Positions 1,814 through 35,902 of a stretch of 39,408 nt of DNA are shown here, piece by piece. This DNA comes from Jimgerdemannia flammicorona. Taxonomy: Eukaryota. Under the pieces are notes generated by a model that had not been told where the DNA came from, made no database searches, and saw only the letters and a list, made by a program, of their open reading frames with translations. Position 1 is the first letter of the stretch. Each line of letters begins with the position of its first letter. Both the position numbers and the translations under genes were made by a program. The DNA is taken from contig RBNJ01000143.1 in assembly GCA_003990765.1 (NCBI GenBank), positions 1 through 39,408 on the forward strand. Reading direction: 5' to 3'.

Positions 1814-4800
1814 GATTGATTTGTTGGTTGGAGGTAGTTCGAGGTGTCCGTAAGAGAGCATCTGTATTGGAGTTTATTCTTCCAGGGCGGTGCACGATGG
1901 TTACATCATAGGCTTGTAACTTCATTATCCATCTGGTATAGATTCCCTTGGGTTGTCCGGTTGTCAGTAGCCAGGTGAGAGCTGAGTGGTCCATCTGGAT
2001 AGTGAAGTATCTTCTGGCCAGATAGTAGTGGAACTTTTCCACAGCTCAGATGACTGCAAGGCATTCCAACTTGTAGGACTCATATTCTTTTTCAGCCCCT
2101 TGGGTTCCATGGCTAAGATATGCAATGATATACTCTTTTTTGTCTTCTTTTTGAGCTAGGACTGCTCCTAGTCCCTGTGCACTTGCATCCATCTGAAGGA
2201 TAAATTCTTGGATCCAATTGGGTCATCTGAGGATAGGTACCTAAGTTAGTCTGACCTTGAGTTCGTCAAATGCTTTTTGTTGTCTGCTAGTCCACTGGAA
2301 CTTGGTATCCTTCTTGTTGAGTTCATAGATTGGGCCTGCGATGTTGGAGAATCCTCTAATGAATCTGCGATAGTAGGAGGCAAGTCCCATGAAGGCTTGG
2401 GCTTCTGTGACGGTAGTGGGCCTTGGGTATGCTGCTACCACTTGTATCTTGAGGGGGTCCATATGTATTCCATCTCGATTGATGATATGGCCAAGATAGG
2501 AGATCTCAATTTCCACAAACTTGCACTTTTTGGGTTTGATATAAAGGCCATGTTGTCTTAGTCTCTCCATTATCTGCTGTATGTACTGCAGATGTTCCTC
2601 GGCCATCTTGCTGTAGATGATTACATCATCGACATAGACCATCATCCATCTTCCCATGTCATAGCGGAAGATTTTGTTCATCATTCGCTGAAAGCTTGCT
2701 GGTGCATTGCACATTCCGAATGGCATTCGTAAGTAGATGTAGGTTCCATCTGGGGTGATGAAGGCTGACTTTTCGCTTGCCACTTCTGTGAGTCCGATTT
2801 GGTGGAATCCTGAGTATAAGTCCAAGGTGCTGTAGTACTGTGCTTCATCTCCCAGTATTATAAGAATGTCACTGATGAGCGGCAGTGGTTGGCGATCCTT
2901 CTTGGTGACTGCATTGAGCTTTCTGTAGTCAACACAGAGCCTTGGGGCAAATTCTCCAGGTTTGCTTCCTTTTTTCGGGGCTAGTACAACTGGTGAAGAC
3001 CAGGGGCTGCTGGCTTCTTTGATGATAACAGCTTCTTCCATCTGCTTGATTTCTTCTCTGAGCCATTCTCGGTAGGCTGGCGGGACAGGTCTTGCTTTCT
3101 GATAAATTGGTTCGGTGTCTCCAGTATCTACCTCATGATAGTAGTGTGGGGTCTTTCCCTTGATATCCTTGAAATCCGTGGCAAGGACATCCTCGAATTT
3201 GTGGAGTATTTTCTTGAGTTCCTTCTTAAGTGGGAATTCGTCTCCAATGGTGTAACTGTGCTTGCTCGTGTTTTCCTCCTTCTTGTGCTCAAGTTCAGTG
3301 ATCTTGGTACTGGTGAATACTCCTCTTCCTGTGGATCCGAATCCTTTCTTTCCTCTTTTCGTTTCCTCCAGATTCTTGACTTCTATGATCCTTGGCTGTA
3401 TGATTGGAAAGATCAACATCTGTGCCAATCGGTCCTTCTTCTTGACTGGGAATGGAATTGTAAGATTGTGGTTCCTAGCAATAAGTAGAATTTCTCCCAT
3501 ATAGTCTGAATCAATGACTCCTCCTTCGATTGTAATTTCGCTTCTAGCCAGGCTGCTTCTTGTCTTGAGAATCCTGACATGATCCTTTGGGATGGTCATC
3601 TCCAGTCCAGTTGCGAGTAGGGTGGTTGTCTGGGGTTTGAGTACAGTTTCTTCTACTGTAGTGATGTCCATTCTGGCTGCGTTTTCTGACTTATATTCTG
3701 GCAAGACTGTGTCAGGGTGGATCTTTCGAATCTTGACCTTGATTTCTTCTTCATCATCACTGTCCTCCAGGAGGGCTGGTGGTTCATCATCTTCCTCTTC
3801 TTCTTCTTCTGTAGTCTGTTTTTCGAGAGCTTTCTGGCTTCTTTCCTGGTAGATCTTCCTGGTTCTGATGGTGCACTGGTAGCAATCATTGACATGTTCC
3901 ATACAGTACATCTTGATTCCATGAGGACAGACTCCTTGTGGGGCATAGCCTTCTGCGATCTTCTTGCACCATTCTTCTTCACTCATCCATCCGACTTTCT
4001 TCTTCTTTGCGGTAGTCACTATATAAGCTTCCTCTTGCTCGCTCTCTTCTTTCTCCATATCAGGCAGGACTCCTTTGTTGACATTGATGGGAATTCATAT
4101 CTTCTGTCCCTGGTAGGTGATTTGCATTTTCTGAGCATTGAGATCGATTACCGCTTTGGCTTTGTGAAGCCATTGATTGCTGATGAGGATGTCATAGTTG
4201 GTGGCATTGGTTACGATTACATCTACTGGGATTGTTACTCCTCCGATCTTGATGGGAACATCTCGGATCTTTCCCAGAGGTGTGGCTCTTGTGCCATCAG
4301 CTGTGACGAATACTAGCTTGGTTGCTTCTTCCACATCTCAACCTAGGTGGTCTGCTGCCTTCTTACTGAGGAGACATCCTCCTGCTCCTGTGTCAATGAT
4401 GGCTTCAAAGACTCGATCCTCAATTTGGCATGTTGCATAAGCAGAGGTTTTGCGATTGTCCTCACTTTCTTCTCCTGAGTCTTCTTGAACATTATTGGCC
4501 TCGGTTATCTTCCATCCTTATTCCTTGGTTGTTTCGGCAAGTCCAAACCTCATTTGCTGTCTGAATGTTGGGATTTCTGCAAGCTGACCAAAGGTTGCAT
4601 TGACCTTTTATTGACTGAGATCCTTGAAGATATCATACTTGAAGGTCTTGGTCTTGCGAAGCTTCTTTTCTTTTTCTCCTTCACTGGCTGGAGTGGTTCC
4701 TCGGATGATATCTTGAACTGCTTGCTCCAGCTCGATATCCTGGTCCATCTCTTTGGCTTAACTTTCTGTGGCAGTTTCTATCCGCTTTTCCACTGGATTC

Positions 4801-5912: not shown

Positions 5913-6389
5913 TGTAACATAGCGGACGCTTACTCTTGAAAGTACGTCAGATTTCTGTATCTTGAAAACTTGACCATTCTGACTCTCGCAGAGTCTCTTG
6001 AAGTTGTAGGAGAGGGTGGGTGAGTTCGAAGTATATCTGCCTGCAGGCTTACTAGTTCCTTTGCTATCTCTTTGCTTTTGAACTATTTCGATCTGAGGTT
6101 TATTCACTTGAAGACACTGGGTTATTTATACAAGTTTGCTAGCTATGAGAGGGTGGCTAAGTAATAAATGAGTTATTTGGACTTTATTGAAACATTCAGA
6201 CAATGTCTAAATGCTATATTAAATCGGAGTATCCGATTTGGATAATGTCTAAAATTTAGACAATGTCTAAGGATTTAGACAATGTCGAAATCGAGAACTG
6301 CTAACTATAAGGCTATACTACTTTGGGACTGGGTGCAATCAAGTGTCTATTCCCTATTTCCTTCTTCCGAATTTGGCTGTACCATCACA
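5913..6389 (-). repeat. 5' LTR of E1 (477 bp)
   Basis: TG...CA ends (tgtaacat...catcaca); minus-strand TATAAATA at 6123-6130; homologous to 6458-6953 and 18880-19335. Confidence 0.95.
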
Positions 6390-6457
6390 ATGTATAAATA
6401 TTTATAATAAATTTATATAATTTTAATATTAGTATATTAGATAAATATAATTAATAT

Positions 6458-6953
6458 TGTAACATAGTGGATACATACTGATAGAAGTGCAGCAGATTTC
6501 TTTATCTTGAATACTTGATCTTCTTTAACTTCTCAGAGTTCTCAGATATAGGAGTAGATGAGTTTGAAGTATCTTTACCTATAGACTTATTAGTTTCTTA
6601 TCACTTTACTTAAACTATTTCAATCTGAGATTTATTCACTCTAAATATTAGGAATATTTATACAAGTTAACTAGCTATATGGTTGCTAAGTTAAGACTTC
6701 TTTTTCTATAAGTTATTTCATATAGTTGAGAGATTTATATATTTGTAAAATCTGTATAGATGAGAGATCAATATATCTGAGAGATTTATATAGCTATACT
6801 TTTTATATAATTATATAGATTATACAACTGAGAGATTGAGTGACTGCTAAACCATAATGCTATATTATATCAAAAATCAGATTCAGATACATACTACATA
6901 TAATCAAATATCTATTTTATAATTATTATTTCTAATTTAGATCAACTATTATA
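6458..6953 (-). repeat. 3' LTR of E2
   Basis: Starts tgtaacatagtgg like the E1 LTR; ends actattata (mutated accatcaca), followed by a mutated PPT. Confidence 0.85.
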
Positions 6954-8346
6954 ACTTTCTTCTAAATAAATAATTTTACTCCTAAATTATCTTATTCAAA
7001 CTCCTATGCTTCAATCAATTGTATATTCTTATACTATATAATCTACTCAATTATATTCTTTCAATAGTGTCTTTTTATCTATTAGAAATCTTTTGAGACT
7101 ATATCTTGAAAATAGACTAGAGCTTACTCATTATCTTTAAATGAGTTATAAACCTACTTAGCTATAGTAATATAAGTATAGGATATCTAGCTCTCTACAA
7201 TCTATTCTTCTTTAGTTATATTCTTTTTATTTAAGCAATTTTCTCAACTTAAAATACTCTTGAAACTCAGTATAATATTAAAATTTATAATAAGTAAGTC
7301 TGTACAATACTTTGAATACTATTAAACAATTTCTCTATAGCTAGCAGCTCAGTAGAATACTATTGTCTTTCTAAAACTCACTGAGCAATACTTGTGATCT
7401 TGAGAGTTAGAGTAATATTTCATAGTTAGCTATAGTACTTCTTGAGTTAGTTTTAATAGATAGTAGTGTAGATAATTATATCTAATTGTTTTTATAGCCA
7501 AAAGGTAGTTTCTTTTACATTTTACACATTATAAGATCCTTTCTATTTAGGCTTCAGTTTTTATAACTTTAAAGCTTTTACTATATTTTAATATATTAAA
7601 ACTTTATCTCTTATCTTGATAATCTCTAGAGACTTATATATCTTCTCTATATTATTCTAGTATAATACCTATATCTTGATTATATAAGCTTTAGTCTTCT
7701 TTCTTATTTAATATAGTCTCTATATCTCAGTATCTATATATTTTCATACTATATCTTTATTAGATAATAGAGTTTCTTTATAACTTCTTCTCTGAATAAT
7801 AATTCTCAAGAGATAAAATATGTACTTTGTGATCATATATTCTGAAGAGTAGATAATATTATTGACAGATAGTAGTTCTAATGTTTATAGTTATTATAGA
7901 TCTTGGTAATAATATTTTTAAGTATCTTATTGATCTTTTCAGTCTATCTATTTCTTTATAGATAATAAGCTATAGTTCAAATATACTAAATCTTGTACTT
8001 CTTGTATAGAATCTCAAAGAGCTGGTTCATGAATTCTCTTTCTCTATCTGTTATTACTTGCTTTGGAATCTTGAATTAGCAGATGATTTTTCTATAGAAG
8101 AAATTAGTAATTAACTATATATTGACTTCTTTGAGAAGTCCTACTTCTATCTATTTCATAATGAGATCTATAATAACAATAATATGTCAATATTAAGAGT
8201 AGTGGATCAATTATATTTGCAATATGGACAAATAGTACTAATTCTATATCTACTGATACTAGTATCTAGTTTTGCTAATCTTGCTTCTGTTTCTGGTATT
8301 TATTACAGATCTTGACAAATTATCTGATATCTTTCTCTATTCTAGA

Positions 8347-8711
8347 TAGTGCTTCTAATAAATTGAATCAAAGATCTAATTCAATTTGATTTAAATTGAA
8401 TCAAAGGTCTAATTTAATTTGAGATTTAATTCAAACTCTATTTTTTAAAATGCAATAACTCAACAAATATATATATTTAAATTTAATGATCTTTAACTTG
8501 TTAGATTTCTCTATATAAGAAGAATCTAATAAGCTAAAGGTTGATAAATTTAGACATATTTTCATTAAGTTATTATATTTTGAAAAATAGGGGTTGAATT
8601 GAACCCTCAATTTAATTTAAATTCAATTTAATTCAAACTTGATTCAAATTGAAAAATCCTCAATATAATTTAATTCAAATGATCTTCAATTTAATTTGTT
8701 TGGAAGTACTA
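8347..8711. mobile_element. 365-bp hAT-like MITE inserted in E2 integrase
   Basis: 8-bp TSD attctaga/attccaga; imperfect TIRs tagtgcttctaataaattgaat / atttaatttgtttggaagtacta; internal palindrome; absent from E1. Confidence 0.85.
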
Positions 8712-11700
8712 ATTCCAGACTACTATATTGCTCTTCTTACTTTATTATAGGTATTTATCTTTTAGATAGCCAAATATATATACTAATTTCATTATATGTT
8801 TCTTCTTTAGTATTTCTTAATTAATTTTAAATTATTTTCAAATTCTGTTGATAATTATTTATATTCATTCTTCTAGGTATTGGGGCATCCTTTACTATCT
8901 TAGATAAGTGGTAATTCTATAGTAGAGTTTCTTATTTATTTTTATTTTACTAGTTGTAAGTTCTTTAGAATATTTGTAAGAGTATATCTGCATTAACATT
9001 ACTTCTTTCTAAGTAGTACATAATGGTTGTATTATATACTTATAGTTTTATAATCTATCTAATAAATATTCCTTTTAGTTAGCTTATGATCAATAACTAA
9101 GTAAGAGCTAAATGATTATTTAGGATAGTAAGTATCTTCTAGTAAGATAGTATATAGTGTAACTTTCTACAGCCTAAATGACTACGAGATACTCTAGTCT
9201 ATAGAATTTATATATATTCTCTTTCTTCTCTACAGATTCCTCAGTTGAGATATGCTATATTTGACTTTATTTAAAGAACTACTTCTAGTCTAATTGAGCT
9301 TATATCTATCTATAGGATGAACTTTTAAGATCAGTTAGATCTTCTCAAGATGGGTGCTTAGATCAGACAGATATTGAGATGTTTAAATACTTATTATTAT
9401 CTACCAATTAATTGGAACTTAGTATCTTTCTATAGATAAAATCTGTAATATTGAAGAATTCTTTAATAAATCTTCTATAATAGGTGATAAGTCCTATAAA
9501 GACTTAAGCTTCAGTAGCTATAGTAGGTCTTGAGTAGGCTTCAACTGCTTGAATCTTGATAGGGTCTGTATGTATTCTATTCTAATTAATAATATAACTA
9601 AGATAAGAGATCTCAATTTCTACAGAATTTGAATTTCTTAGACTTAATATATAGGCTATACTTCCTTAGCTTCTCTATTATCTACTGGATATACTACTGA
9701 TACTCTTCTGGTATCTTCCTATAAATGATTATATCATCTATATAAACTATCAGCTATCTTTCTATATTATAGTAGAAGATTTTATTCATTATTTACTAAA
9801 AGGATATAAGTTCTATCTAAGATAATAAAGGCTGACTTTTCACTTACTGCTTCTGTGAGACTAATTTGTAGAGTCCTGAATATAAATCTGAGGTACTATA
9901 ATACTATACTTTGTTATAAAGATGTTGCTAATGAGTAGTAGTAGTTAGTAATTCTTTTTGATATCTAGGTTGAGCTTTCTATAATTGGTATAAGATTTTG
10001 GAGTAAATTCTCCAGGTTTGCTATCTTCTTTAGAGCTAATATAACTAGTAAAGTCCAAGAACTACTGACTTCTTTAATAATATCAACTTCTTTCATTTGT
10101 TTGATTTCTTCTCTAAACTATTTATAGTAGACTAGTAGGATGGGTCTTATCTTCTGATAGATTAGTTTAGTATCTTTTCTTTGATATTCTTAAAGTCTAT
10201 AGCAAGAATATCCTTGAGTATCTTCTTAAGTTTCTTCCAAAATAGGAATTTATTTTCTATAGTATAGCTGTATTTATTTATAGTTTTCTTCTTCTTGTGA
10301 TCCAGTTCAGTAATCTTGATACTAGTGAATACTTCTCTTTCAGTGGATCCAAATTCTTTCATTTCTCTTTCTGTTTTCTCTAACTTCTTGACTTCTATAA
10401 TCTTTAGCTAAAGGACTGGGAAGATTAATATTTATATTAGTCAGTCCTTCTTAATTGAAAATGAAATCATAGAATTATAGTTCTTAGCAATGAGTAGTAT
10501 TTCTCCAATATAATCTAAATTGATAACTTCTCTTTCAATAGTAATTTTACTTTTAGCTAGACTACTTCTTATCTTAAGAATTCTAATATAGTTCTTCAGA
10601 ATAGTTATTTTTAGACCAGTTGTAAGTAGAGTGGTTGTCTGGGGCTCAAGTATAGTTTCTTCTACTGTAGCAATATCTATTCTTACTATATTCTCAAACT
10701 TATATTCTGATAGTACTATATCAGAGTAGATTTTTTAATCTTGATCTTGATCTTTTCTTCATTATTACTATCTTCTAGGAGGGCAGATGGTTCATCATTC
10801 TCTTTCTCCTTCATTTCTTCTTTATTCTCTCTTATCTATTTCTCATAGACCTTCTATCTTCTTTAATAGTAGATCTCCTTAATTCTACTGGTATTTAGTA
10901 GTAATCATTGATATACTCTATATAGTATATTCTGATTCTATAGAGGCAGACTCCTTATAGTATATATTCTTCTATGATCTTCTATACCAGTTCTCTTCTC
11001 TGATCTATCTGACTTTCTTCTTCTTCTTTTGAGTATTTATCATATAGGTCTCTTCTTGCTCACTGTCTCCTTTCTCTAGCATCTTCTGAGCATTTATATT
11101 AATTATAGCCTTAGTCTTGTGGAGTCACTGGTTGTTGATAAGAATATCATAGTTGGTAGCATTAGTTATAATTACATTTACTAGGATAATTACTCCTCCA
11201 AACTTGATGGAAATATTTTGAATTTTTCCCAGAGATGTGGCTCTTATACTATCTGCTATAATGAATACTAATTTAGTTGCTTCTTCAACCTCCAAACCTA
11301 GGCAGTCTACTGCTTTCTTACTAAGGAGATATGTATTCTTCTACTTCTGTATCAATAATGGTTTTGAAAACTCTATCTTCAATTTGATATATTATATAGG
11401 CAGATGTTTTGTGATTATCTTCACTCTCTTCTCCAGAGTCTTCTTAAACATTATTGGTCTCAGTTATCTTCCAATATTAGTTCTTAGCTATTTCAGTAAG
11501 TCTGAATTTTATTTATTATCTAAATATGGAGATTTCTATCAGTTGTCCAAAGGTTGCATTAATATTTTATTAACTGAGATTCTTGAAGATATCATACTTG
11601 AAGGTCTTGCTTTTGTAAAAATTCTTCTTCTTTTCTTCTTCACTAACTAGGACTAGAGTGGTTTCTCAGATAATATCTTGAATTGTCTGCTCAAGCTCTA

Positions 11701-12092
11701 TATCTTGATCTATTTCTTTAGCTTGACTTTCTGTAGCAGTCTCCATCTATCTCTCTACTGGGTTCTTCTTAAGTCTTCTTAGTAGTCTCTTATAGAGTTC
11801 TTTACAGATATCTTTTTTAATAGTTTGAGTAAGATAAACATCCTATTCTTTTTCATCAAACTCTCTAATTTCTTTAAAGATAATAATGTTGGTCTGTTTT
11901 TATTTTGGATAATATTGCTTAGCTGGGTCTTATACTTAGTTTTACTTATATATTTATAAGAGTAGTGATCTTTCTTTTTACAGCTATAGTAGATATCACA
12001 CTTCTTATCTGAGGTGATAGCAAACTTCTGAACTGGGCAATAATCTCTCTCTCTGATTTCTTTTACTATATCTCCTAGATAGATAGTTATTT

Positions 12093-12552
12093 TGTAACAG
12101 TTCTAGTTTCTTTAAGAGAAAGTGGCTAAATCTGGAAGTTCTAGTTGATCTAAAGTAGCTCAAAAAGAGATACTTAAAGGTTCAAGTATTCTTGAAGGAT
12201 TTCTGGGAGAAAATATTCTGAGCTTTATTCAGATAGAGAACAAGAATATTTATACATTATCTGAAAGAAAGATCTGGAAGGATCTTGGAAAGAAAGAGAA
12301 ATGCCAAGAAATAGGTTCTTGACAAAGCTGACTAATACTATTCTACAATATTCTGAAAGGTTTTATAACTAGCTGAGACAAGATACTTAGTGCCAAGGAA
12401 AGATAAGAATGTTCTAGTAGTATCTGGGCACTGAGAGAAGGTTTTTAAGCAAGTAGAATGTTCAAGAAATGACAAGAAAAAACTGACTAAAAGATGCAAA
12501 AAATGTACTAAGACTAAATATGACTGTAAAATTATTACATTCCTCTCTCCTT
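12093..12552 (-). mobile_element. LTR (12093-12539) plus PPT of an unrelated LTR element that truncates E2
   Basis: tgtaac...attaca ends, followed by ttcctctctcctt (AAGGAGAGAGGAA on minus strand); starts exactly where E2 homology stops. Confidence 0.75.
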
Positions 12553-14534
12553 AAGAACCAATATTCTTATTGAGTTCTTTAATCAACGGAACCTTTCTAT
12601 TAAAATTAATAAATATGAATTCTAAAATGTACCTATATTGTGTGTCTTGCATGAAAATAGTGTTTAAATTTACCACATATAAATTGTGACGGTAAAGGAT
12701 GCATCGATCGAAACTGACACATCCTCACGTAATTTCGCACATGATTTAGTACGTGGATAATTCATATGTATTGCCACGTGCTAGTCTCTTACATGATTTT
12801 CGTTCTTGCAACGTGAACTGGTATTGTGGAGTATTTTTTTTTTTTTTTTCAAATACCAACTCAACACCATATCGTGAATTCCATAAGTCAGTAAAATCCT
12901 CAAGCACCAACCCGAACTCACCGGTTTTATCCTTATATATTCACCAAGCCTCCCATTTCATAGAGTCTAGTAAGGGGATGCAACAAATTAAATCATATTG
13001 TACCGAGATAATGCACTGCAGTTGATGTACTTGTACAGTAATAGGTCGACGATGGGGAGGTTTATATAATAAGTGGAATTGAGTGGATATAAGATTTTTT
13101 GAGTGTCAGACGGCGTGGGAAAAAAAAAAAAAAAAATCCGCTGGCTTATCCTTTCGCATGGATTTTGTGTTATAAATTTACTAATTTGTTCTGTGAGCTC
13201 TAGCTGGTTGACAATATGACAAATAAGCGACTGATGAAGAAGTTTCATCCATTTAGCATTTTTCGCATGTACAAATATAAATGATATGATAATAAGCCTA
13301 AAATGCCACAATAATCCATCAATCGAGATAAGCAGGTGATATCCAATATTTATATATCACAATTTTTACTTAGAGTATTGTATGAGAGAGTTTAAATGAG
13401 AATAGAAAATTACTAATATTCTGTTCAAAAAGATATATTATATTCAAGTTTACTTCAAAATAAAATCAGTACATAACTCACAAAGGTAGAGAAGAACAAT
13501 ATATACTCTATATTGGAGTGGAGATTTTTACCAGTACATGCTTAAAAAGCATCATTACTGAGGTAAACCCAAGTGCTTGGTTTCCTGTGCATAGTTTGTT
13601 AGAGATGCTCGGTTTCATTCTTCTTAACTTGTGTTGCATTCTCGAAAAATTGGCGTGGGTTGTATGACATGTGAGTGGGTTGTAAAGACAGTTACTCTCG
13701 GCGACGATCGCCCCTCCCACGTATCGATATCGGCAAAGAACTCTCAAATATGCGACGAAACACCAAGAAGCGTTTGGCGATTGTTCTTTGACTTTGGAAT
13801 TTCAAAGAACACCGGGTGGGACTGACTTTCATTTAATGAGCATATCCAAAGAGATGATGGCGCTCCTCCCCAATTGCGTTTATACCACACATCTAACGTG
13901 AAAAAAAAAAAAAAAATGTAACCCACCCAAAAGGTCGTGTTGCGATGTAAGAACCATCTGTGGTGACATTGGTGACAATTTTGGAATTACTCTTTTTTAA
14001 TAGATAGAGTCGAAGCCCTTTTCATGATAAGCTAGAATATTTTTATTTCTTTTTTTCAAAAAAAAAAAAAAAACCGTCCGTTATGCGACTGTCTTCCAAT
14101 CCCTGCCTCGAACCATCCCTTTCCCACATTCCGCCACACACCTCAAAATATCACTCCGCATTGAACGCAATATCAATGTCCCAGCTACGGCAACTTTTTT
14201 TAAGTTGCCGTCGCAATTTTATCAATGTTGCTCCTTCGGCAATAAACTTGCTTGCCTTAGTGCACCCCTTTCTCATCGCCTTCGGGGCATTCTTGCGATG
14301 GTTTATGTTTTATTATTCATTTTTGACTAAAATAAATAACATAATGTGATGCGATCGCACGGTTAACATCTTTCGTTTCTTTACTTTATGCTTCCATTTC
14401 CAACTGTAAACGTGAAAATTAGTCGATATATTCTATTCAACACACAAATTATACGAACTACGTCGATCCTATAGACTATACAAAATTACATTTTCCAACC
14501 ATGCAAACTGAAGTTGATCCTAACCCTACTTCAT

Positions 14535-16550
14535 TTCACCTTTTTCTTTTCTTCGTTACGGCTTTCTCCACAGAGGCGGGTTCTTCAGCCTGGGACAAGG
14601 GATCGTCATCGACATTGATTGCCCGAGTTGACGTGACTATCTTTTTCTTTGTCGTAATGACCTTATCAACAGAGGCGGGTTCTTCAGCCTTAATTGATCA
14701 CCCGAGTTGAAGTGACGTCACCGGCGAGGTCCGTAATTTTGGGCGCAGCTATTTTTTCTGGCTTTCTTCTGTTGCGGTTTTAGCTGTTCCGCTAATGACT
14801 CATAGAGTTGCTCCCTGACGACGTCGGATCTCATCGTCCCTCCCTTGTTCTGTCCCTCTTCAACCCGCTCGGTCTTCACCTTCGTTTTCTGCCCCGAAAA
14901 CTTCTGCTCGCATGCCGTTTACCCATAGAGCGATTCTTCCAATCACTGTCAATGCAATTTCTAACCACGCCCTCGCCCACTTGAGCAACACCTCAACCCT
15001 CCTCTCTGATCCTCCATCTGAATTGTCGCCTCGCCCTTTTCTTCTCTGCTGCTCGTGCTCTCCTCCATCGGCATCGTCATCTCGCCTCCCCATTCTCCGC
15101 AGGTAGCGCTCCCTTCCTGCTTCACTTTTAACCATCATCAAACACATTTTCTGGCAGCTGCTCCTCCGCCATATTAAATCTTCTGTTATCGAACGTTATC
15201 CCCTCCTTCATCATCTCAGCAAACTGCGCCTGAACCTCCATCTTCGCCTTCTCGATTCTGCCGGCAAACCCTTTCTCAGATTCTCCTCCTGAAAATTCTT
15301 AATCACGCGCATTTGCTTATCCCTCTGTATATTTTCAGCCAAGAACCGATGCAGAAGCGATTGAAGAGTTGAGAATATACTGGTATAGCTGATTATAGTT
15401 TGGCTTGTCCTGAATGTTAGTGGTCGTTGGTGGGGGTGACGTCGTGGCCGAGTTGAGGATGGCATTCTGGTTCGCGCTATTGCTCGGAGTTGGGGACGGG
15501 GACGAGGACCAGAATGGGGACAGGGCCGAGGGGACGAGGACGGGGACGAGGACGAGGACGAGGACGAGGATGAGCTTGATAGTTGGTGGTGGAGATCCAA
15601 TCGGTATGGGGTATTCAAGACAGGTGCCTAGAGCAAAGACCCGAACCCGTGGCGGACCCTTCCGGGAATTTTGCATCTGTCAACCTATTTGACGCGCTCG
15701 ATGCCGTTGGCGGGAGTAATCGAGTCCCGTTTGTCCGTCCTGGTGCGGGCTGACCCCGAATACCCAGTCGTCATTCGAGCTGTGGTCTTCGCAGCTACAT
15801 TTGTATTGGTTGAAGCACATGTATTGGCGGCCGAATCACCCGGGATTAAGGCAGCAGCTTGTTGCCCTTGGGTCTGCTGCGAGTGGAGGACCAAGCCATT
15901 CCCCCGAGAATCGACCCCCAAGTTGGGTAACACTTGAGGGGAGCTTAACGGCGGTCGACTTTGACAGGAAGTCTGCGTTGGCTCTTCTCGCGGGAGTAAT
16001 CGAGTTTCGTTCGTTCATACTGGCGCTGGTTGACCTCGAATTCCTCGTTGTAATTCGCGCCGTAGTCTTCGCAGCTACATTGGTATAGGTTGAAACATAT
16101 TTATTGGCGGCCGAATTATCCGGGAATAAGATAGCAGCCTGTTGCCCTAGGGTCTGCTGCGAATGGAGGACCATCAATTGCCCCAAGGATCGAAAAATTC
16201 GATGCCCACAAGATGGGTCACACCCGGGGGGAGCTTAACAGCGGTCGATTTTCCCAGGAAGTGGCGTTCATTTTCGTGTACGGCGTGGGACGGATATATT
16301 TCAAGTGGTATGTAGTGGGAGGATATGACAGAGTTGGTGCCTGGTCATATGATTGGTTGCCAGCGAAGGAGGTGTCTGAGAAGGTAATGTAGGAAGGTTG
16401 TGCGTGATGGATGCTGTAGGTGGGGTCGATGGAAGCGGTTGGAAGACCGTCGAACGAATGAAGAAACGTCTTGTATTCGCTGTTGTCATCAAAGTCGAGG
16501 TCATTGTTGTAAGCTTGCATGATGGAAGACGAAGCGGATGGAGGCATGTG
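14535..16550 (-). pseudogene. Fragmented host-like gene, product unknown (Ser/Pro/Thr-rich repeats, charged helical segment)
   Basis: Consecutive minus-strand protein-like segments in changing frames (MPPSASSSIMQAYNND..., VLHSQQT.GQQAA x2, ...IEKAKMEVQAQFAEMMKEG, ...AEEPASV x2); CpG-rich unlike flanking TEs. Confidence 0.5.
15711..16270. repeat. Diverged tandem duplication, period 280 bp
   Basis: cgggagtaatcgagt at 15711 and 15991, with colinear similarity (gtcttcgcagctacatt, tattggcggccgaat, gggtctgctgcga, gggagcttaac). Confidence 0.9.
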
Positions 16551-16722
16551 TGGAGGTATTTCCAAAGGATAGGAGGTTTGCGCGTTAGGTGGGGTCGATG
16601 GAAGCAGTTAGAAGACCGTCGAGCGATTGAAGAAATGTCTCCTATTCGCTGTTGCCGGCGAAGTCGAGGTCGTTATTGTAAGCTTGCATGATGGAGGATG
16701 AGATGGATGGGAGCATGTGTCG
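16417..16722. repeat. Diverged direct repeat, ~135 bp x2, period 169 bp
   Basis: taggtggggtcgatggaagc at 16417 and 16586; ttgtaagcttgcatgatgga in both. Confidence 0.9.
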
Positions 16723-19723: not shown

Positions 19724-21751
19724 ATGGTGACCAATGAGCATCTGGAGGTGCATACTGGGCAGGGTGGCCCTGGAGCTTTTGAATGGCAGCAAGTGGGGAG
19801 AGGCCCCAGCTTGGGGGGAAGTATGAGGGGCCTGCTGGCGGGAGGCCGTGGTGGAGGAGGAGGTGGAGCTGGAGGGCAAGGGTCTGGCAGGGTGAGCTTT
19901 GCGGAGAAGGTGAAGGGGGGTCAGCAAGGGGCTGGACTGGAGAGCTGGCTGTGAGGGGGGAAGGTACCAGTGAAGGCTGCCAGACAGCAACCTCTTGGGG
20001 GTACCTCTCTGGAGGGCCATAGGGGTGGAGCTGGGGGGGTAGCAGCTGGGGCGGGGACTGCTGATGGGGGTGTGACGGGCGATTTGGAAAAAAATCTAGA
20101 TGGGACTGCTGATGGTGAGCCAAGTGGTGGGAAGGGCACGAGGCCAGGGGATCTGGCAGATGGTGTAACAGGACTGGCGGTGGCTCCATTACTCAAGAAG
20201 TCAATCTCAGCATTCACAGTCACATTGTGTTTCCGAGGCTTAGCAGTGACAGCGAAAATGGTGTTGGGGCTTATCGCTAAGCAGGTGGCTGGAGCAGCTT
20301 TGGTGAAGTTCCTGAAGGGACTGGAGGGGATGGAGGTGGGCTTTGAGGAGGTCGGACTGCTGGAGGAGGCACTGAGGGTTGGGCTGGTGGTTGGAGAGGT
20401 GTGTGTTCTGATGGCAAGGTGTTTGAAATGGGATCCAAGGGTGGTCCAACTGCTGGTGAAAGGAGTCCCTACAGTGATGGCAATGGAGATGAGAAAGAGA
20501 GTGGAGGATGTCATGGCAGAGTACGGCGAGGTGATGGATATTGGATTCCGGGTCTGGGAAGGGACCACACTCAGGACTGGGGATGTGGATGTGAGGATTC
20601 AGCTGGCCAGAAAGGAGGCTACTGGAAAGATGAGGGACTGGCCTTCGACGATGGTTTGGGGGGCATTCCTGTGCAAGGTGACATGGGTGAAAGGGAGCGA
20701 AGAAGAGGAGGAGGATTTGTTGGAAGTGCTGGAGGAGCTGGATGGAGTGGTGGACCGGTGTGCCAAGGCTTGGAAGACTTTCGAGGAGTTGACGCACCTG
20801 GAGATAGTGGATGGGAAGAGGATTCGAGTGAACAAGGTGCAGTGGGAAAGGGCTCAGGGGCGGAAGAGGCAGAAGGATCTGCTGGCTAAGCTGGGGGGTA
20901 GACAACCGAAGGATGCGAACATGATGGCAGGTGCCGAAGGGGCTGGAGCGAGTGTCTGGGCTGGTGAGAGGAGTGGGTATGATGGGGCAAAGACAGGGAA
21001 GGCGAAGGAGGTGCCAAGTGGCGACCCATATGCGGATGGCACCTTGGAGGTTTGGGAGGAAGTCTGGGAGAACTCCCCCACCCCTTCCCCTCTTATCAGG
21101 CATGGCCCGGCTTCCAGGAACAAATCTGGGGAGGACGTGATGATGCTGGGGACCCAGCAGGTGAAATTCAGCATTCCGGAGGTAATGGATGGGGACCAGG
21201 TGGTGGCAGCCGGGGAGGAGGAACTGGTGGATCTCCCAGAGGTGTGGGATGAGGACGCGAGTGCTGGAGCTGACACCACGATGCTGGACGGAGGGAGGTC
21301 AGCGACCCCTGGTGGAAAGGAGGTGGGGAACCTACTTTGGATATGCTGGATGATGAACAACCTGGCGGCAGAAGAGCTGGGGGAGGTAGACCTGTGTGGG
21401 ATGAGTGATGAGCACTGGGCAAGAATTTTGCAGGGAGAAGGTGTGGTGATGGCACTGAAGGCGGAGATTCTCGCAGTGTATCTGGAGGAGGAAGGGTATG
21501 AGGTGGACAAGGAGAGGGAGGCAGAGTTGGCAGTTGTCACTGGGGAGAAGGCTGAGTACTGTTGGAACAGGCATCATAGGCTACAGCTTTGGCAGGAGGC
21601 TTGCATCGAGTACCGAGAGGAGTTTGAGGAGAAAGCTGATGAGGAGATGAATGAGCTGTTGGCTGGACTGGAGGCTCAAAGGGCTGAAGAGGGGGAGGTG
21701 ATGGCTGAACACAATCTGGACATGGCACAGGAGGAGATGGGCATGGAGTAG
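19724..21751 (+). pseudogene. LINE A ORF1 (Gly-rich N-terminus, RRM-like core, acidic helical C-terminus; one internal TGA)
   Basis: Track ORFs 19724-19954 and 19970-21751 are in frame; SFAEKVK, EYGEVMDI, RTGDVDVRI; colinear with LINE B ORF1. Confidence 0.85.
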
Positions 21752-21784
21752 TAGGGATTGATTGCGAACAAACCGTATTTCATT

Positions 21785-24700
21785 ATGAATAGTACAACCA
21801 ACATTTTTTCTTTGAACGTGAATGGGCTAAGGGGTGCAGTTAGACGCAGGAACATTTTTACTTGGTTGAAGGGATTGGAGGCCGATCTCTTCCTCTTGCA
21901 GGATGTCAGGTGCGAGGATGATTCTGATAGGATGGAATGGACTAAGGAATGGGGTGGCATGGCGATTTGGAACAGCAAGGTTGGGATTCTGGTTTGGAAA
22001 GGCAGAGGGGAGATACAGAATGTAAGGAGCTGGGGGGAGAGACTGGTCTGGGGTGAGTGGATTCGTGCAGGGTGGGAGCCGGTTACAGTTGGCTCCTGTT
22101 ACTGCCCTACTGTGTGGAGGGAGCATGTGGATTGGGTGAAAGGGCTCCTGGAGAGTGGGGTCCTTGCTGAAGCTGGGTTGGACATACTTGGAGGTGATTT
22201 CAATATGGTGCAGGATGTACAGCTGGATAGAACCGATGGAGGCCGGGGTGCTGAGAGCAGGAGTGGGGGGCTGGCAGTGTGGGAGGAGGTCAAAAGGCTA
22301 GGAGCGCTGGTGGATGCTGGTAGGGTATGCTGGGGGGACAGGAGGGTATATACACATTGGGCTGGAGGTCTGGGGACAAGGATTGACTGGATTCTGTCAG
22401 CCGACTGTTGGGGCCATGACATTTGGAAGGAGCTAGAGGTAGAATGGTGTCCGTAGTCAGATCACTGGGGCCTTTTGGGACAGGGGTGTTTTGGGGGTAG
22501 TGGTGATGGACCTGGACATTAGCGCCTGAACTCCTCCTTGTTGGATGACAAGTCCCAGTAGGAGGAGTGGGCAAATGACATTCAGATTAAGGTGACGAAT
22601 TGGTGGCAGGAAGGGGCCACCATTGGGGTTCGGTGGAGAAGGATGAAGGAGATGGCCAGGATGTACTGGAGCAAGGCTGGCAGGGTGGCTGGGAGGCAGC
22701 GAAGGCAGAAGGTATATTGGGCTTCTACTAGATTGGCTAGGCTTCTGGAGGAGTGGGCGAGTCTGGCAGTAGTGGAGGGAGAAGAAGATTGGAGAATAAC
22801 AAGGGTGAAGATGGAGGTTGGGAAACTATAACAGGTGCTGTGGGAAGAGGAAGAGGCAAGGGTGCAAGGCCTGGCAGCACGGCTTCGTTGGCAGGGACTG
22901 GAGGAAGGGGAGAGGCCTTCCAAATTTCTTACGAGGATGCTTTGAGCAAGACAGGTACAGCAGCAGTGGGAAGGGGTACTTTACTCAGATAGTAGACTAG
23001 TGCACGGTGTACAGGATATCCTTGGAACACTGAAGGTGCGATGGAGTGGATTGTGGAGTGAGGAGGAGGGTGGGGCGGACACTACAGCCATTGAATGAAC
23101 ATTAGAAGATTGGCACACTCCACGAGCTGAGGGATTAGGCAACCTGACGATGCCTGTAGAGGAAGATGAGATCCACCAGGTTCTTGCCGCGACAGCCTTG
23201 GGTATGGTGCCTGGGGAGGATGGTCTCCCCTGGGACTTCTGGAAGCGAATGGTTGGAGTCCTGGGCATTTTTGGAGAGTTGATGGCACTGTGTGACTCCA
23301 TATTGCAGTCAGAGAGATGGGTGGGGGAGCAGGATCTTGGGCTGGTGATGCTGCTTTATAAGAACAAAGGAAGGCGAGAGGATTGGAAGACTGGTGGCCG
23401 ATAATGTTGCTAGATATGGACAGAAAGTTAGTGACTAAGGTGGTGGTCGCAAGGCTGCAGAAGGTGGCCCAGCAAATTGTGGGAGTTGAGCAGAGGGGCT
23501 TCATAGGGGGTCAGCTTATTTGAGATGGCATGGCCTGGGTGCACGGCATTATTGAGGGTGCTCGAGCCTGTGGACTGGATGGGCGTCTTGTCTTCCTAGA
23601 CCAGGAGAAGGCTTATGACCGGGTGTGGTGAGTCTGGCTGGCGAAAGTGTTGGATAGGATTGGAGTTTCAGTCCAATTTCGGGTGGTGATGGTCAGCCTA
23701 CTGGAAAGGAGTAGGGCTGTGCTCGTGTGTAATGGGCATAGAGGGGTAGCTTTCTCTCTGGGTAGGGGGTTGCCCCAGGGGGACCCACTGTCTCCCATTT
23801 TGTATGCACTTTCCTTGGAGCCTCTACTGGACCGAATTCAGTAGAGGATTGTGGGGCTTTCTATCTATGGAATTGGCTGGAAAGTTGGAGCCTTTGCAGA
23901 CGACATGGTGGTTGGGTTGGGAGTAACTGCAGATATTGAGGAGCTCAAGGAGATGGTGGAGGGGTATGAGGAGAACTCTGGGGCGAAGCTGAATTGGCAC
24001 AAGTGTGAAACGATGGTTTTAGGCAATGGACTGGTAGGTGGAGAGGTTATTGGAACAATTGTCCCCACTAGAGAAGTGGTGTGGTACTTGGGCATATTTT
24101 TGTCAGTCTATGGGTCAGTTCTGCCCAGGCTGTGGTGGGAGCAGAGGATTGGAATTTGGGAGGAGGATCTGCGGGGTTGGGGGGGAAGACACTTCTCTCT
24201 GGCAGGAAGGATCTCGATTTTGAATATATACTGGCTGCCGAAATTGTGGTATTTGGCTTATCATCTGGACTTCCCAGCCTAGGTGGTGAAGTGATCGGTA
24301 AAGGTAGCCAAGGGATGGATTTGGGCTGGCAGAAGGAGTCAGATTGGTTGGGAGACGCTGTTCCTACCGGTGGTGAGAGGTGGTCTTAGGCTGGTGGACT
24401 TCCCCAAAAGACTGCACTGCTTGAGGGCATGGTGGCTTAGAAGGGCAGTGGAGTTGTGTGGAGGGGGTTGGGTTCCCCTACTGCAGAAGGTATGGGAGAG
24501 GCGGACATCGCCAAGAGGCTTGACTGGAGATCTTCTTTCATTAGTTGGGCTTCAGAACACTGGGCAACTGCGATATAAAGGCTTCTGGTGGGGGATAGCC
24601 AAGGGGGCGCACCGCATTGGTATTCGCTGGTAAGGAGATGAGGGGGAGAGGGCTTGGGGCCTGGCGATGTGGAGATGGGATGGCATTCTGCTGGGAGGCA

Positions 24701-25440
24701 TGCCTTTACTGGAGTTTGACATTGGTGATGGAATCAAATGTCAAAGGGGACCAGGCCAGGATCTGTGGCCTAGTGGGTGGCAAGGGGTCAGAATTGGTGA
24801 GGAGTGGGACTAGCAGGGGGTTTGGACCTGGAGTGCCATGGTGAAACATTGGATGCCGCTGAAGTACTGGGTGGTCTGGTGGTATATGCTGAGGAGGAAT
24901 GTAATGCTTAACTTCTGCTCAGGTCACCTTGTCATAGGGGGCTGCTTTGACTGTGAGGAGTGTCATAATGTAGGGTGGGAAGGGGAATATGTACAGATGC
25001 CAGAACATTGGCTTGGGGTGTGTGAGGTGTTGGGTGACTTTTGGCGGGCCATTGGGGACCGCTCAGGGGTAGGGCATAGGGGGGATGATGTATGGGGGAG
25101 GTGGGAAGATCTGAGGGATTGATTGATAGGAGGGGTAGGGGAGGAGTGGCTTACTCTAGGCTGGGTATTGGCTATTTGGGTTGGGCTGGCCAGTCACTGG
25201 CTATTTGTATTTGAGGAGGGGGGGCAATAGAGCTTGGGGAGTCGGGTATCATGGTGGCAGTACCTTATGGAGGATATCTTGACAGGCTGGTGGCTGGGTT
25301 GGGGGCTGCAAGGGGGTCAGAGGCACCATTTGGTGGTGAAAATCTGTGGTCAGAGTGGTGGGAGAGTTGGAGTTGTTGGTGAGAGGGTAGTCTTTACACA
25401 TGATGAGATGGGGAGGGGCCCCCCAATGGGGATAGGGTAG
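21785..25440 (+). pseudogene. LINE A ORF2 (AP endonuclease, RT, C-terminal Cys/His motif), multiple stops
   Basis: SLNVNGL, GGDFN, RIDW, SDH, PGEDG, LDQEKAYD, GLPQGDPLSP, FADD, YLG, CEEC...EHWLGVC; ends GIG*. Confidence 0.95.
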
Positions 25441-25515
25441 GGGGTGGTGTTATTGTATACTTATTCATAGATTGGTAATAAAGACGGAGTCCAAGGGACT
25501 ATAAAAAAAAAAAAA

Positions 25516-26351
25516 GAGACAATGACCACTGGCATGAATACCAACCCACCTTCACCCCCAATTACTTCAACTATAATGAAGAGACCGGAGAACACAACCT
25601 ATACCTGCAGACAACCCTGGAGATTGAACCAACCACTCCACTACCTGAGAACGAGTGATATGAACCACAGCTGCCAGCTTACTACAATCCTGCAACTCAT
25701 AGTGCTGTAACCTATAGAAGGTACACAGACAGTGAATCCAATGAAAGCAAAGATGATATACCCATCCTTCATCCACCAACACCTTATCCAGCCTATGAGA
25801 CAGATGATGCTATCCTGTAGGATGGAGATGAAGTCCCAATGTATTACTACCTCAGTAAATAAGAAGAAGTAATCCGCGAACCACTTTCCTAGATGACTAC
25901 TTCATCAGAGATGATGCAATCAATGGTGATGTCATCGAGGACTACCCAGATAGTGCCTAAACCCATAAATAGCCTAGCAGTTATAGTATAGTTAGATTAG
26001 CCTGGTACAACATGACTGTGAACTGACTCAGTAGTCAGATGATCTCTTGACATGTCAGATCACACTTGTACTACATGACTGCATTCCAACTCAGCAAGGT
26101 ACTTAGTACAACATCCATATTCAGCATAGTCCAGATAGCCCCTCACTAGTATAAATACCCACTCCCCCAGACCTCAGAATCTCAGACTCGAACACACAAG
26201 AACATTCCTGAATACTTCCCCACAATATCCCTTCACACAACTACTCCTAGTATAGCAATATCATGAATGGCAAATAAACCTATTCAATAAACCACAAACC
26301 ACTCTTAAGTAAATCCGCTCTCTGTTAGGTCCTACTCCTAACTCCCTTACA
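25516..26351 (+). repeat. Distal part of E3 5' LTR (left end lost at LINE A)
   Basis: TATAAATA 26150-26157, two AATAAA, ends CTTACA, the inverse of TGTAAG that starts the 3' LTR; left extent inferred, no overlap with the visible 3' LTR. Confidence 0.6.
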
Positions 26352-26383: not shown

Positions 26384-29300
26384 ATGCCAATTCAACTAAG
26401 CTGGTCTTAGTTTCTTGAACTTCCTGTAATACGGAAATCCTGAATATCCAGAACTAGTCCGAAAAAAGGACTTTGGTTGAGATGTCAACCCGATCATGAA
26501 ATCAATAAGCATAAAGGACGTACTCCATATGAAATTGATCTTGACCATAAAAAAATGGTCTTCCAGAATATCCAGAACTTCCAGAAAACCCTTCCAGAAC
26601 TACGTAATGGTTACCATAAAAAGCAACCCTCTTACAACTTGGTAGCAGTGGTTTACAATCCAATTCCGCTTCAAGATGCTTCCTCACCCTGCTACAAACC
26701 CTTCTGAGAATTCTTACAAGTTGGTATAAAGTCCAACATTCGAACTGGAATTTATCCTGAACCATCTGACAATCTGGAGAGAATTGAACCTGACGTACAA
26801 GGACAATTTGACCTCTACACCTGCAACAAGTGGGACAAACTTCATTCTAAGAAAGAAGTATACCAGCAAATAGGCAAAACCCTATTCACCGAACTCCTTG
26901 CACTACACCCAGCAAGTCAAGATGAAGAGAAGCCTTCTTTACTCTTCTCAACAAGAGTTTTGTCAGCTCCACAAATCCGAGTGACCTAGGACAACCAGCA
27001 GCAGTCTTTCTAGCCTTAGTTCCTCACGAAGCACAAGTGTCTGTAGCCAAGTGGCTCAACTCTACCAACTTTCACCATACCAGGACCAAGACCACATTAT
27101 ACTACCGATTCCAGAACAGCAAGGCCTGCCATATTCTTAAAGAAGAAGCAAGAGAAACCCTTCATCAACTACCTGATCCTGAACCCGAAGCAGGCCCTGC
27201 TACAGCCCTACCTGTATCAGAAACTAACACTGAACCTGAACTTGACTTTGAATTAAGTCCATCTGAAATCAGATATACAACTGATTCCGTCTACTTTGAT
27301 GCTGAGCAAACCCAATTACACAGGGACCAAACCAAAGAGGAGGAGGAGTATCTCACTGAATTCGATCCCAGATACACCACCGAAGGAGACACACATCCAT
27401 CAGGACAGAATATACCTACACAGCAACAAACAGTTATCTATCAAGCCCTTACTCCAGATCCACAACTACTACTCCAGCAACTTACACAGACCCAAAGAAC
27501 TCCATCACACTCTGCACCAGTACCTCAAGTAGTACCAGTAACACCATTACCAGCAGTCCAACCGCCTCCAGTAAACAACATGGTGAACCAACAGATTCTT
27601 GATCTCACAGCCCAAGTAGCTACAATGGCAGCAACTATTACTGCCTTAGCTAAACAGACCTGACCTACAAAAAATCTGAGTCTACCTACCTTCAATGGTA
27701 CTGCACAAGAAGTCCAAAGCTTTATTAGTGTAGTTGACACCAACTTCAAAGCCAATCAATGGACCAATGAGCGAGTTGCTGACCATGTTCTGATAAACAA
27801 TCAAGACCACACTCTGGAACAACTCTTTGCTACCACTACAGCCTATGTCCACCAAGTTGTTACATTCTCCCAAGGACCTGCCAAAGAATGGTGGCGAACC
27901 CTTCCTGAAAAACCCCTCACATGGGATACCTGACCTGCAGTAGTTGCTCAGAATGCAGCAAACAATGCCCCAGGATATGGAGCCCATCCTGCAGCCCCTG
28001 GACTCAAACAACTCATGATCACTCAATACTGCAGCGAAACCATGATTGCTGAGTCTCAAGTAAAACTCCACAGCCTCAAATTTGATATACATGACAAAGA
28101 AGAATTCGAAACCTTCTGTACAAAACTTGAGTCACTCCTGAACACTGTTGGCCTAGGATATATTGCCAACAATGAAGCATGAAATGGTACAAGAGCAGAC
28201 CATTTATTTGATGCCCTGCCTGAATGGTTTACCAGAAATATCTGAGAACAAGGCTGCCCAGTTGGTGGTAACTACCAACAATGATGCCTGGTAAGAATCA
28301 AGACTATGGTTAAGCAAATCCTAACAGCTGGACCAATTCTGCCCCGAAGACAATTTAACAATAATGAAAAGACTTGGACCAAGAAAGAAGAACCCAAACA
28401 TAAAGCATCCCGAGCTCCCTCCACATCTATCTCTTGGATGCCAAGAAATCATGAACCTACCCAGCCAAGTATCTTCAAGAAACTTACTGAAGGTGAAAGG
28501 AATGAACTTCGAAGAAGTGGAGCATGCTTCTATTGCTGAAAGACAGGACACATGGCCAGTGCCTGCCCTAACCAAAAACCCTGAACAGCAACAAGAGCAA
28601 CTGTTACCACTCTGCACCACCTCAACAACCTGACCACTAGAACACGGAACTTTGTCAAGTTAAGACAAACTGCTAAGGCCCCAATCAAAGGAAGTCAGAA
28701 AGCAGCTGGATATGACCTATATGCAGCCGAAGAAGCTACAGTTTCCAACTGAGAAGTCAAACAAGTCTATACAGGAATCAGCATCCAAATCCCTGAAGGA
28801 CATATTGGAAGAATATGCTGTCGCAGTAGCCTAGCATTGAAAGGACTCTCAGTAGAAGGAGGAGTCATTGATGAGGATTACACAGGCGAAATTATTGTCC
28901 TCATCCGAAATCACAGTTGGACACCCTTCAAGATCCCTATTGGTTTCTGCATCGCCCAGATCCTATTTGAAAAAATTGAGTCAACCCTGACAGTCAAGGA
29001 AGTCCCTGAACTACTGCCCACCATCTGAGGATCCAAAGGATTTGGCTCATCCAATAAGGCCCCAGCCCAACCTACCATGAACAAAGAAGAACAATTCTAC
29101 AAGAAGATCAAAGATGGATATGTACCAAGTGGCTGATGTCCTCATGGCATTAGAATATACTCTTCCTGAATGATTGATGATTGCTTCTCTTGTGTCAATG
29201 AACTGGCTCAAAGAAGAACCAACAGAAGGAAAGCTCCTACAACCGAAATCACTACCATTGGATCAGACAAACTACTCACACTTAAGGCTTTTGTCAACCA

Positions 29301-33870: not shown

Positions 33871-33900
33871 ATTGGAAAAATGTGGTAAAAGAGACCCAGC

Positions 33901-35817: not shown

Positions 35818-35902
35818 GTTAATAGTCGCTGTACACCAAAAACACAGTGAAAAGTGTTGTCTGAGTCTTGTGTCACCTGAATGTTACTGGTGAAAGATGT
35901 GC

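Follow-up and report, generated by a model that had tools for sequence, protein, structure and literature searches.

A conserved Cys/His module between protease and dUTPase in two Ty3/gypsy retrotransposons of Jimgerdemannia flammicorona

The stretch of DNA analyzed here, hereafter the window, comprises 39,408 nucleotides of the Jimgerdemannia flammicorona genome (contig RBNJ01000143.1 of assembly GCA_003990765.1, forward strand). It carries two Ty3/gypsy retrotransposons, E1 and E3, that share a short Cys/His module between their protease and dUTPase domains. Comparison with relatives confirms this conserved module as real at the level of sequence, and it is absent from the domain catalogues that we searched. 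E1 lies on the minus strand and, by Pfam, encodes protease, module, acidic linker, dUTPase and reverse transcriptase (RT), in that order. The module occupies 3849-3995, or residues 34-82 of a stop-free frame of 617 codons (2241-4094; P0001), as seen from its translation, from BLASTP against the copy in E3 and from a family profile that scores it at 86 bits; the span originally predicted, 3864-3986, corresponds to residues 37-77. The four putative ligands are encoded at 3927-3929 (Cys56), 3921-3923 (His58), 3882-3884 (Cys71) and 3873-3875 (Cys74). A Glu/Asp-rich linker, evident in the translation of 3720-3818, leads from the module to the dUTPase (3327-3704, residues 131-256; PF00692, E 7.1e-25, 87.7 bits against a cut-off of 22); the best match to it among solved dUTPases reaches 82 bits. 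The aspartic protease (4113-4475; Pfam RVP_2, gag-asp_proteas and Asp_protease_2) terminates some 36 codons upstream of the module, one in-frame stop (4095-4097) falls in this gap, and the RT core is found at 2481-2978 (residues 373-538; RVT_1, E 8.3e-34). Further downstream, Pfam identifies an integrase with an H2C2 zinc domain and an rve core (647-1738), in whose open reading frame it detects no chromodomain. A repeat search places a long terminal repeat (LTR) segment, at its minimal extent, at 6259-6390 and again at 1-132 with 92% identity. The LTR pair, protease, RT and integrase together identify E1 as a Ty3/gypsy LTR retrotransposon.

E3 lies on the plus strand and, again by Pfam, follows the order CCHC knuckle, dUTPase, module, protease, which resembles the betaretroviral gag-pro layout. 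Its gag knuckle (28522-28572) contains one in-frame stop and matches zf-CCHC below the cut-off (E 0.0056). The dUTPase (28672-29052; PF00692, E 2.6e-32, 111.8 bits against the cut-off of 22) ends about 10 codons before the module, which spans 29083-29217 and is supported by its translation, by BLASTP against E1 and by 78.7 bits in the family profile. Here the putative ligand codons are 29137-29139 (Cys), 29143-29145 (His), 29182-29184 (Cys) and 29191-29193 (Cys). About 15 codons past the module span begins the aspartic protease (29263-29610; RVP_2, E 1.1e-10). The RT is interrupted by an insertion of about 5.6 kb (~30400-36040) that itself bears RVT_1 on the minus strand, and the C-terminal part of the E3 enzyme resumes at 36040-36531 (phmmer against the E1 RT, E 1.7e-38). 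Knuckle, protease, RT and a chromodomain (38382-38525; Pfam Chromo, E 5.8e-17) identify E3 as a Ty3/gypsy LTR retrotransposon, and the predicted chromodomain marks it as a chromovirus. Pfam therefore confirms the original prediction that the module sits between protease and dUTPase in both elements, in opposite order. The accompanying claim that both carry a separate knuckle holds for E3, with the sub-threshold match given above, and needs a correction for E1, where the gag knuckle has Tyr in place of His and Pfam makes no call.

For the two modules, BLASTP gives a gapless match with 18/36 identities (50.8 bits; E 9e-16 as a single comparison), which stays far beyond chance once the six-frame content of the window is allowed for. 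The shared segment of about 45 residues described at the outset is therefore corroborated. Searching the six-frame translation of the window with the family profile returns exactly three copies: those in E1 and E3, and a decayed E1-type copy, likewise foreseen, in the mutated element E2 (10874-10990, minus strand; profile domain E 9.5e-5, with an alignment to E1). Since E2 is a copy of the E1 family with decay resembling repeat-induced point mutation (RIP), it lends the module no independent support.

Such support comes from outside the window. A HMMER search with the whole 617-residue E1 frame returned 184,989 proteins at E <=0.001, of which the best 150 were examined; a second search, with the module-plus-dUTPase region of P0017 as query, added five gypsy proteins (P0152, P0153, P0154, P0155 and P0157) and the copia-like P0156 (Pol_BBD, dUTPase, rve). 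Four gypsy polyproteins beyond the window carry the module, P0017, P0152, P0153 and P0154, with that of P0017 recognizable about 30 residues ahead of its dUTPase. P0042, an 81%-identical fragment, has both module and dUTPase, and P0144 is a dUTPase carrier with two differently spaced Cys/His clusters. Scanning metagenome contigs with the module alignment gave at least two confirmed loci among the 592 pattern matches listed: L001, a module of the E1/E3 subtype that is 59% identical (E 2e-19) and retains the four ligands, and L002, an E3-family copy about 80% identical to E3 that keeps its order of dUTPase, module and protease.

A profile from an eight-row alignment of the module (A3) detects two copies in P0154 at E 1.3e-11, although P0154 is outside the alignment, and a third copy is visible there by eye. 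When a narrower profile, built from the rows of E1/E3/L001 type, was run over the 157 collected proteins, its top four non-self matches were P0017 (E 0.0084), P0154 (0.032), P0152 (0.055) and P0153 (0.24). Each is weak alone; as all four are dUTPase carriers and all four matches lie upstream of the dUTPase, a chance origin seems unlikely. Matches to 'ESNFQNGKCKH' in P0113, P0079, P0107 and P0019 were rejected as modules, being gag CCHC knuckle regions. A scan of viral contigs with the module yielded eight pattern matches, none of them confirmed, and in the ESM Atlas the best feature score for the E1 module was 0.78, with no usable match for residues 100-285 of P0154. Predicted-protein sets under-represent transposons, which limits what these searches say about the range of the family.

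Across these sequences the pattern is C-x-H-x(9-12)-C-x2-C. The spacing first described, x12, applies to E1, E3 and L001 and has to be relaxed elsewhere, to x10 in P0017, P0152 and P0153 and to x9-x10 in P0154. In the A3 alignment the first Cys, the His and the Gly-Ile that follows are invariant in 8/8 rows, and each later Cys is kept in 7/8, the exceptions being Tyr in the decayed copies P0042 and L002. Conservation of the four putative ligands in homologs, on which the original prediction depended, is thus observed in independent relatives, with losses confined to Cys-to-Tyr changes in those two copies. The core opens with G-x-C-x-H-G-[IT]-x-[FMI]-[YHF]; after 4-6 further residues come an acidic residue and C-x2-C. 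It is preceded by a short predicted Glu/Lys-rich helix and followed by a basic one. Aligning P0017, P0152 and P0153 shows that invariant columns peak at the module, with a fraction of 0.65 per 20-column window, while the flanking linkers are indel-rich, with an invariant fraction of 0.05-0.15. Four invariant residues, their spacing and a conservation peak within an indel-rich linker all fit a single putative zinc site, and on the most likely reading Cys, His, Cys and Cys would bind one zinc ion.

The linkers hold other features as well. Besides the module, the linker of P0017, P0152 and P0153 contains two more conserved islands, a basic/acidic stretch about 70-90 columns past the protease and a Trp-rich stretch near columns 133-155. 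The protease-dUTPase linker of P0155 contains two C-x2-C...C-x-C units, and in that of P0144 there are two of the form C...H...C-x2-C, spaced differently from the module; neither set of Cys clusters matches the module profile. In L001, a single frame with two stops (1-1122) encodes the module, downstream Cys clusters and a Trp-rich unit that appears again close to the end of the contig, and Pfam SCNM1_acidic matches residues 58-87 just above its cut-off (30.2 bits against 27, E 3.5e-7). L001 may be a protease-dUTPase linker with several modules, as in P0154, or may show the module in a different setting. Small metal-type motifs seem to have a hot spot in the protease-dUTPase linker.

Both E1 and E3 are dead elements. 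From gag to RT, E1 has eight in-frame stops (three TGA, three TAA and two TAG). In E3 there are 16 between 26926 and 30390, 12 of them TGA and two inside the module (29134-29136 and 29167-29169), and TGA accounts for a further 9/13 between 36040 and 38100. These TGA stops fall where relatives have Arg: L002 has Arg at the TGA of E3 in dUTPase motif 5, and P0153 has Arg at or near both module positions. We considered TGA as a sense codon in E3 and rejected it, given that E1 has no TGA excess and that the E3 stops coincide with Arg positions of relatives. The two module TGA codons are common to L002, which is 79.8% identical to E3 and has lost nearly all CpG; two CpG are kept in both sequences versus 16 sites that are CG in one and TG, CA, AG or CC in the other. 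By a rough estimate, about 20 of some 36 ancestral CpG have been lost in both. Because CpG decay is so heavy, parallel CGA-to-TGA loss in E3 and L002 is expected, and we rejected both recoding and a shared dead ancestor as explanations of the common stops.

We then compared the module with described domains. Scanning eight members against Pfam at E <=10 gave no family at or above its cut-off on the module, in line with the original prediction of an unrecognized module. The nearest approach is zf-C5HC2 (PF02928), with 17.5 bits (E 0.0052) against a curated cut-off of 22 in 1/8 members, E1 only; the extra Cys/His residues of E1 on which membership would depend are unconserved in E3, L001 and the P0017 group. 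Pfam likewise finds no domain in the module region of P0017, P0153, P0152, P0154 and P0042. The module was rightly distinguished from the CX2CX4HX4C knuckle (PF00098, C-x2-C-x4-H-x4-C): the spacing differs, no zf-CCHC match appears in the eight members at E <=10, and the gag knuckles lie elsewhere. Nor does it correspond to the integrase HHCC domain (PF17921/PF09337, H-x(3-7)-H-x(23-32)-C-x2-C), which Pfam matches only in the 647-1738 reading frame. Searches of solved-structure sequences returned DnaI with the single peptide (E 0.61) and RBX1 with the profile (E 3.8), both noise. The second zinc site of RING fingers such as RBX1 (C-x-H...C-x2-C) shares the local pattern and a hydrophobic strand, at a non-significant E-value. 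However, RING is an eight-ligand cross-brace whereas four ligands are conserved here, and the RBX1 match is within noise.

Structure prediction adds a tentative picture. AlphaFold2 with a 6-row alignment gives a helix at 6-14, a hairpin at 21-29 and a second helix at 32-48, at a mean pLDDT (predicted local distance difference test) of 65 and a pTM (predicted template modeling score) of 0.34; the single-sequence model, at pLDDT 52, is uninformative. In the alignment-based model, C-x-H would sit on the hairpin and C-x2-C where the second helix begins. Such a layout would resemble a treble-clef or beta-beta-alpha arrangement.

With these results the module can be weighed against chance resemblance, or a non-functional linker relic whose Cys and His are fortuitous. 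The segment is short, both copies in the window belong to dead elements and the structure model is of low confidence, all of which would suit such an origin. Against it stand the pairwise E-value of E1 and E3, the independent relatives that keep the same four residues in metagenome contigs and database polyproteins, and the conservation peak inside otherwise variable linkers. We consider a fortuitous origin very improbable.

The original prediction had also called for co-occurrence with dUTPase to be tested. Among the best 150 RT relatives, three carry dUTPase (P0042, P0017 and P0144). Run over all 157 collected proteins, the A3 profile matches only dUTPase-bearing gypsy polyproteins; in the 147 RT relatives without dUTPase it gives no match better than E 0.25, and the best ones are gag knuckles. 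Since 143 of these 147 extend more than 150 residues upstream of the RT, and 127 more than 300, the relevant region is mostly present in them. Within the sample available, the module is tied to dUTPase-bearing gypsy elements. The association holds in this direction and is incomplete in the other, as some dUTPase carriers lack the module. The copia-like P0156 has a dUTPase and no module, which shows that in these data dUTPase has been captured outside gypsy elements as well.

The same counts bear on the main functional rival, that the module belongs with the protease rather than with dUTPase, as a small folded spacer that places cleavage sites or modulates protease dimerization, with its nearness to dUTPase incidental. 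Its position about 36 residues past the protease in E1 and some 15-24 before it in E3 would agree with such a role, as would the other conserved islands and Cys clusters (P0155, P0144) of the protease-dUTPase linkers. In P0017, P0152 and P0153, however, the module lies about 150-200 residues past the protease and only about 30-60 before the dUTPase, and 0/147 of the gypsy relatives that have protease and RT without dUTPase possess it. A role as protease-side spacer is improbable in our assessment.

How the module came to be in both elements depends on their relationship. In an RT tree (FastTree, 127 rows, with E3 represented by its C-terminal 164 RT residues only), E1 groups with P0155, P0154, P0144, P0157, P0017, P0152 and P0153 in one clade of support 98 (Shimodaira-Hasegawa-like), all with the layout protease-dUTPase-RT. 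E3 is placed elsewhere, among 13 rows that group together with support 100; the other 12 are without dUTPase. No similarity was found between the Gag proteins of E1 and E3 (best E 0.37), and the chromodomain is present in E3 only. As originally proposed, E1 and E3 belong to different gypsy lineages, judged by these sequence comparisons, and their Gag proteins look unrelated. Identity between the two elements is 50% in the module, 38% in RT, 36% in dUTPase and 25% in protease, with none detected in Gag. The modules of E1, E3 and L001 have in common the x12 spacing and an I-x-[ED]-G-Y-x-P-x-G lead-in, both missing from the P0017 group; the RT of E1 groups with P0017, at odds with this module subtype. 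The disagreement favors lateral movement of the module, and its higher identity between E1 and E3 hints at lateral exchange. Within the E1 clade, the arrangement of module, protease, dUTPase and RT looks vertically inherited.

A further step, taken in the original prediction, is that module and dUTPase were exchanged together, traveling as one accessory cassette between the E1-type and E3 chromovirus lineages. The module's place between protease and dUTPase in both elements, its standing as the best-conserved E1-E3 segment, the conflict of subtype with the RT tree and the two changes that a dUTPase label needs on that tree, one of them on the E3 branch, would all be expected from such a transfer. 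The dUTPases themselves give no such signal: E1 and E3, at 36%, are no closer than other pairs, with E1 at 33-38% identity to every other retroelement dUTPase and E3 at 36-42%, and for the E1 enzyme, scores with solved dUTPases of cells and viruses (62-82 bits) are similar to those with P0017 (83 bits) and P0144 (76 bits). An IQ-TREE analysis of ten dUTPases, whose comparators are without cellular eukaryotic enzymes, leaves E1 and E3 in a polytomy, and the approximately unbiased test of an E1+E3 clade decides nothing (p 0.229). The reversed order, module-dUTPase in the E1 clade versus dUTPase-module in E3, also speaks against a simple cassette, as a single cut-and-paste gives another layout. 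Joint exchange with dUTPase is not sustained by these comparisons and we regard it as unlikely.

Taken as a whole, the best explanation, which we consider probable and hold with moderate confidence, is that the module represents an uncatalogued family of Cys/His modules of about 35-45 residues in the Pol of dUTPase-bearing Ty3/gypsy elements. In the non-chromo clade of E1, P0017, P0152, P0153 and P0154, with its protease-linker-dUTPase-RT layout, the module would be a conserved island in a variable linker, present in one to three copies and vertically inherited. The E3 chromovirus would hold a single copy between dUTPase and protease, probably gained by recombination between co-resident elements, because this copy is of the same subtype as that of E1. 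The module may serve as a nucleic-acid or RT-complex anchor that holds the adjoining trimeric dUTPase where reverse transcription takes place. This anchoring role is our best guess, taken by analogy from the betaretroviral nucleocapsid-dUTPase and the knuckle of the rotifer element Juno, both described below. The flanks of the module are Lys- and Arg-rich.

Several observations weigh against this explanation. Both copies in the window belong to dead elements, and the family is small: it numbers five or six independent sequences, and several of these are pseudogenized. Word-indexed searches with the module alone found no relatives among 5.8 billion proteins (0 of 9 candidates confirmed at near lengths, 0 of 1 at longer lengths). 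The putative zinc site draws on sequence conservation and a poor model, and fold searches with the alignment-based model gave nothing above noise (Foldseek best E 2.5, VIA-align best Z 3.3). P0155 and P0157 carry dUTPase without the module, P0157 being N-truncated with no Cys cluster seen, and the clusters of P0144 are differently spaced; conversely, L001 has the module and no dUTPase on its contig of 1122 bases. The sample of 150 relatives is biased, in that the similarity query itself held dUTPase and module. The anchoring function is drawn from analogy only. A stronger version of the proposal, in which the module is a self-contained zinc finger of a new family dedicated to retroelement dUTPases, anchors them to the RT complex and has moved between unrelated gypsy lineages, appears doubtful to us; if true, such a module would mark domain-level recombination between co-resident retrotransposons.

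The remainder of the window contains further mobile elements. E2 (6500-13700), a copy of the E1 family with 25-30% G+C, is 73.7% identical to E1 (2241-4700) over 2282 aligned bases. One-way changes from C to T or from G to A make up 429 of the 600 differences, with CpA and CpG contexts favored; the mutated fraction is 0.66 for CpG, 0.59 for CpA, 0.35 for CpC and 0.24 for CpT. This signature is RIP-like and by itself suggests a fungal host. The heavy CpG loss of E3 and L002 is unlike this pattern. Two blocks, at ~19955-26000 (plus strand) and ~30400-36040 (minus strand), have opposite GC skew (+0.44 and -0.45) and form inverted arms that are 73-74% similar. The former encodes an Exo_endo_phos endonuclease (21755-22453, E 2e-8) and the latter contains a Pfam RVT_1 match (31108-32668, minus strand); they are two oppositely oriented copies of a non-LTR, LINE-like retrotransposon, the second of which is the insertion in the E3 RT. 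An open frame of 598 codons at 19955-21748 has no Pfam match. Between elements, a stretch of 48-49% G+C at 15710-16720 holds two direct-repeat pairs, one of 184 nucleotides (83% identity, 280-nucleotide spacing) and one of 135 nucleotides (85% identity, 169-nucleotide spacing).

Accessory zinc knuckles beside retroelement dUTPases have precedents. In Juno, a gypsy-like element of bdelloid rotifers, dUTPase is located between protease and RT, and 'an extra Zn knuckle' comes after it (Rodriguez, Kenefick and Arkhipova 2017, PMC5408684). A small zinc-type module thus adjoins dUTPase between protease and RT in both cases, as far as that description goes. In Juno, however, the knuckle follows the dUTPase and the host is an animal, whereas the module here has the pattern C-x-H...C-x2-C, is unmatched by Pfam knuckle models and precedes the dUTPase in the E1 clade; the comparison is by description only (PMC5408684). 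Mason-Pfizer monkey virus, a betaretrovirus, makes a nucleocapsid-dUTPase fusion protein, which couples a zinc- and nucleic-acid-binding domain covalently to a trimeric dUTPase, likewise in a retroelement (PMC1802613). In that fusion the usual CCHC nucleocapsid supplies the zinc domain, whereas here it is an extra domain of another pattern beside a separate gag knuckle.

For fungal gypsy elements, three positions of dUTPase have been reported, N-terminal in Pol, C-terminal, and between protease and RT, and independent acquisitions were suggested (Novikova et al. 2010, PMC2864245). The carriers named there are PosPlaTy3-3, -4 and -5 of Postia placenta, elements of Phanerochaete chrysosporium, and Tmt1 of Tuber (PMC2864245). 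The first and last of these placements correspond to the layouts of E3 and E1, respectively. The zinc motifs given in the relevant portion of that paper are only CCHC and HHCC, however, with no module beside dUTPase (PMC2864245). More broadly, we found no description of a C-x-H...C-x2-C module in the literature searched on retroelement dUTPase.

Extra polyprotein domains show how retrotransposons borrow and reshuffle functions. The reason that some retroelements carry a dUTPase, and how it is retained where cDNA is made, are poorly understood, and a module beside the enzyme offers a testable handle on both, by asking whether it binds zinc, whether it binds nucleic acid or RT, and whether low-uracil cDNA depends on it. 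The module would justify a new profile for transposon annotation, and the conflict between its subtype and the RT tree makes it a small marker for recombination between gypsy lineages. In sum, the gain is incremental rather than conceptual, a real if modest extension of the known repertoire of mobile-element components.

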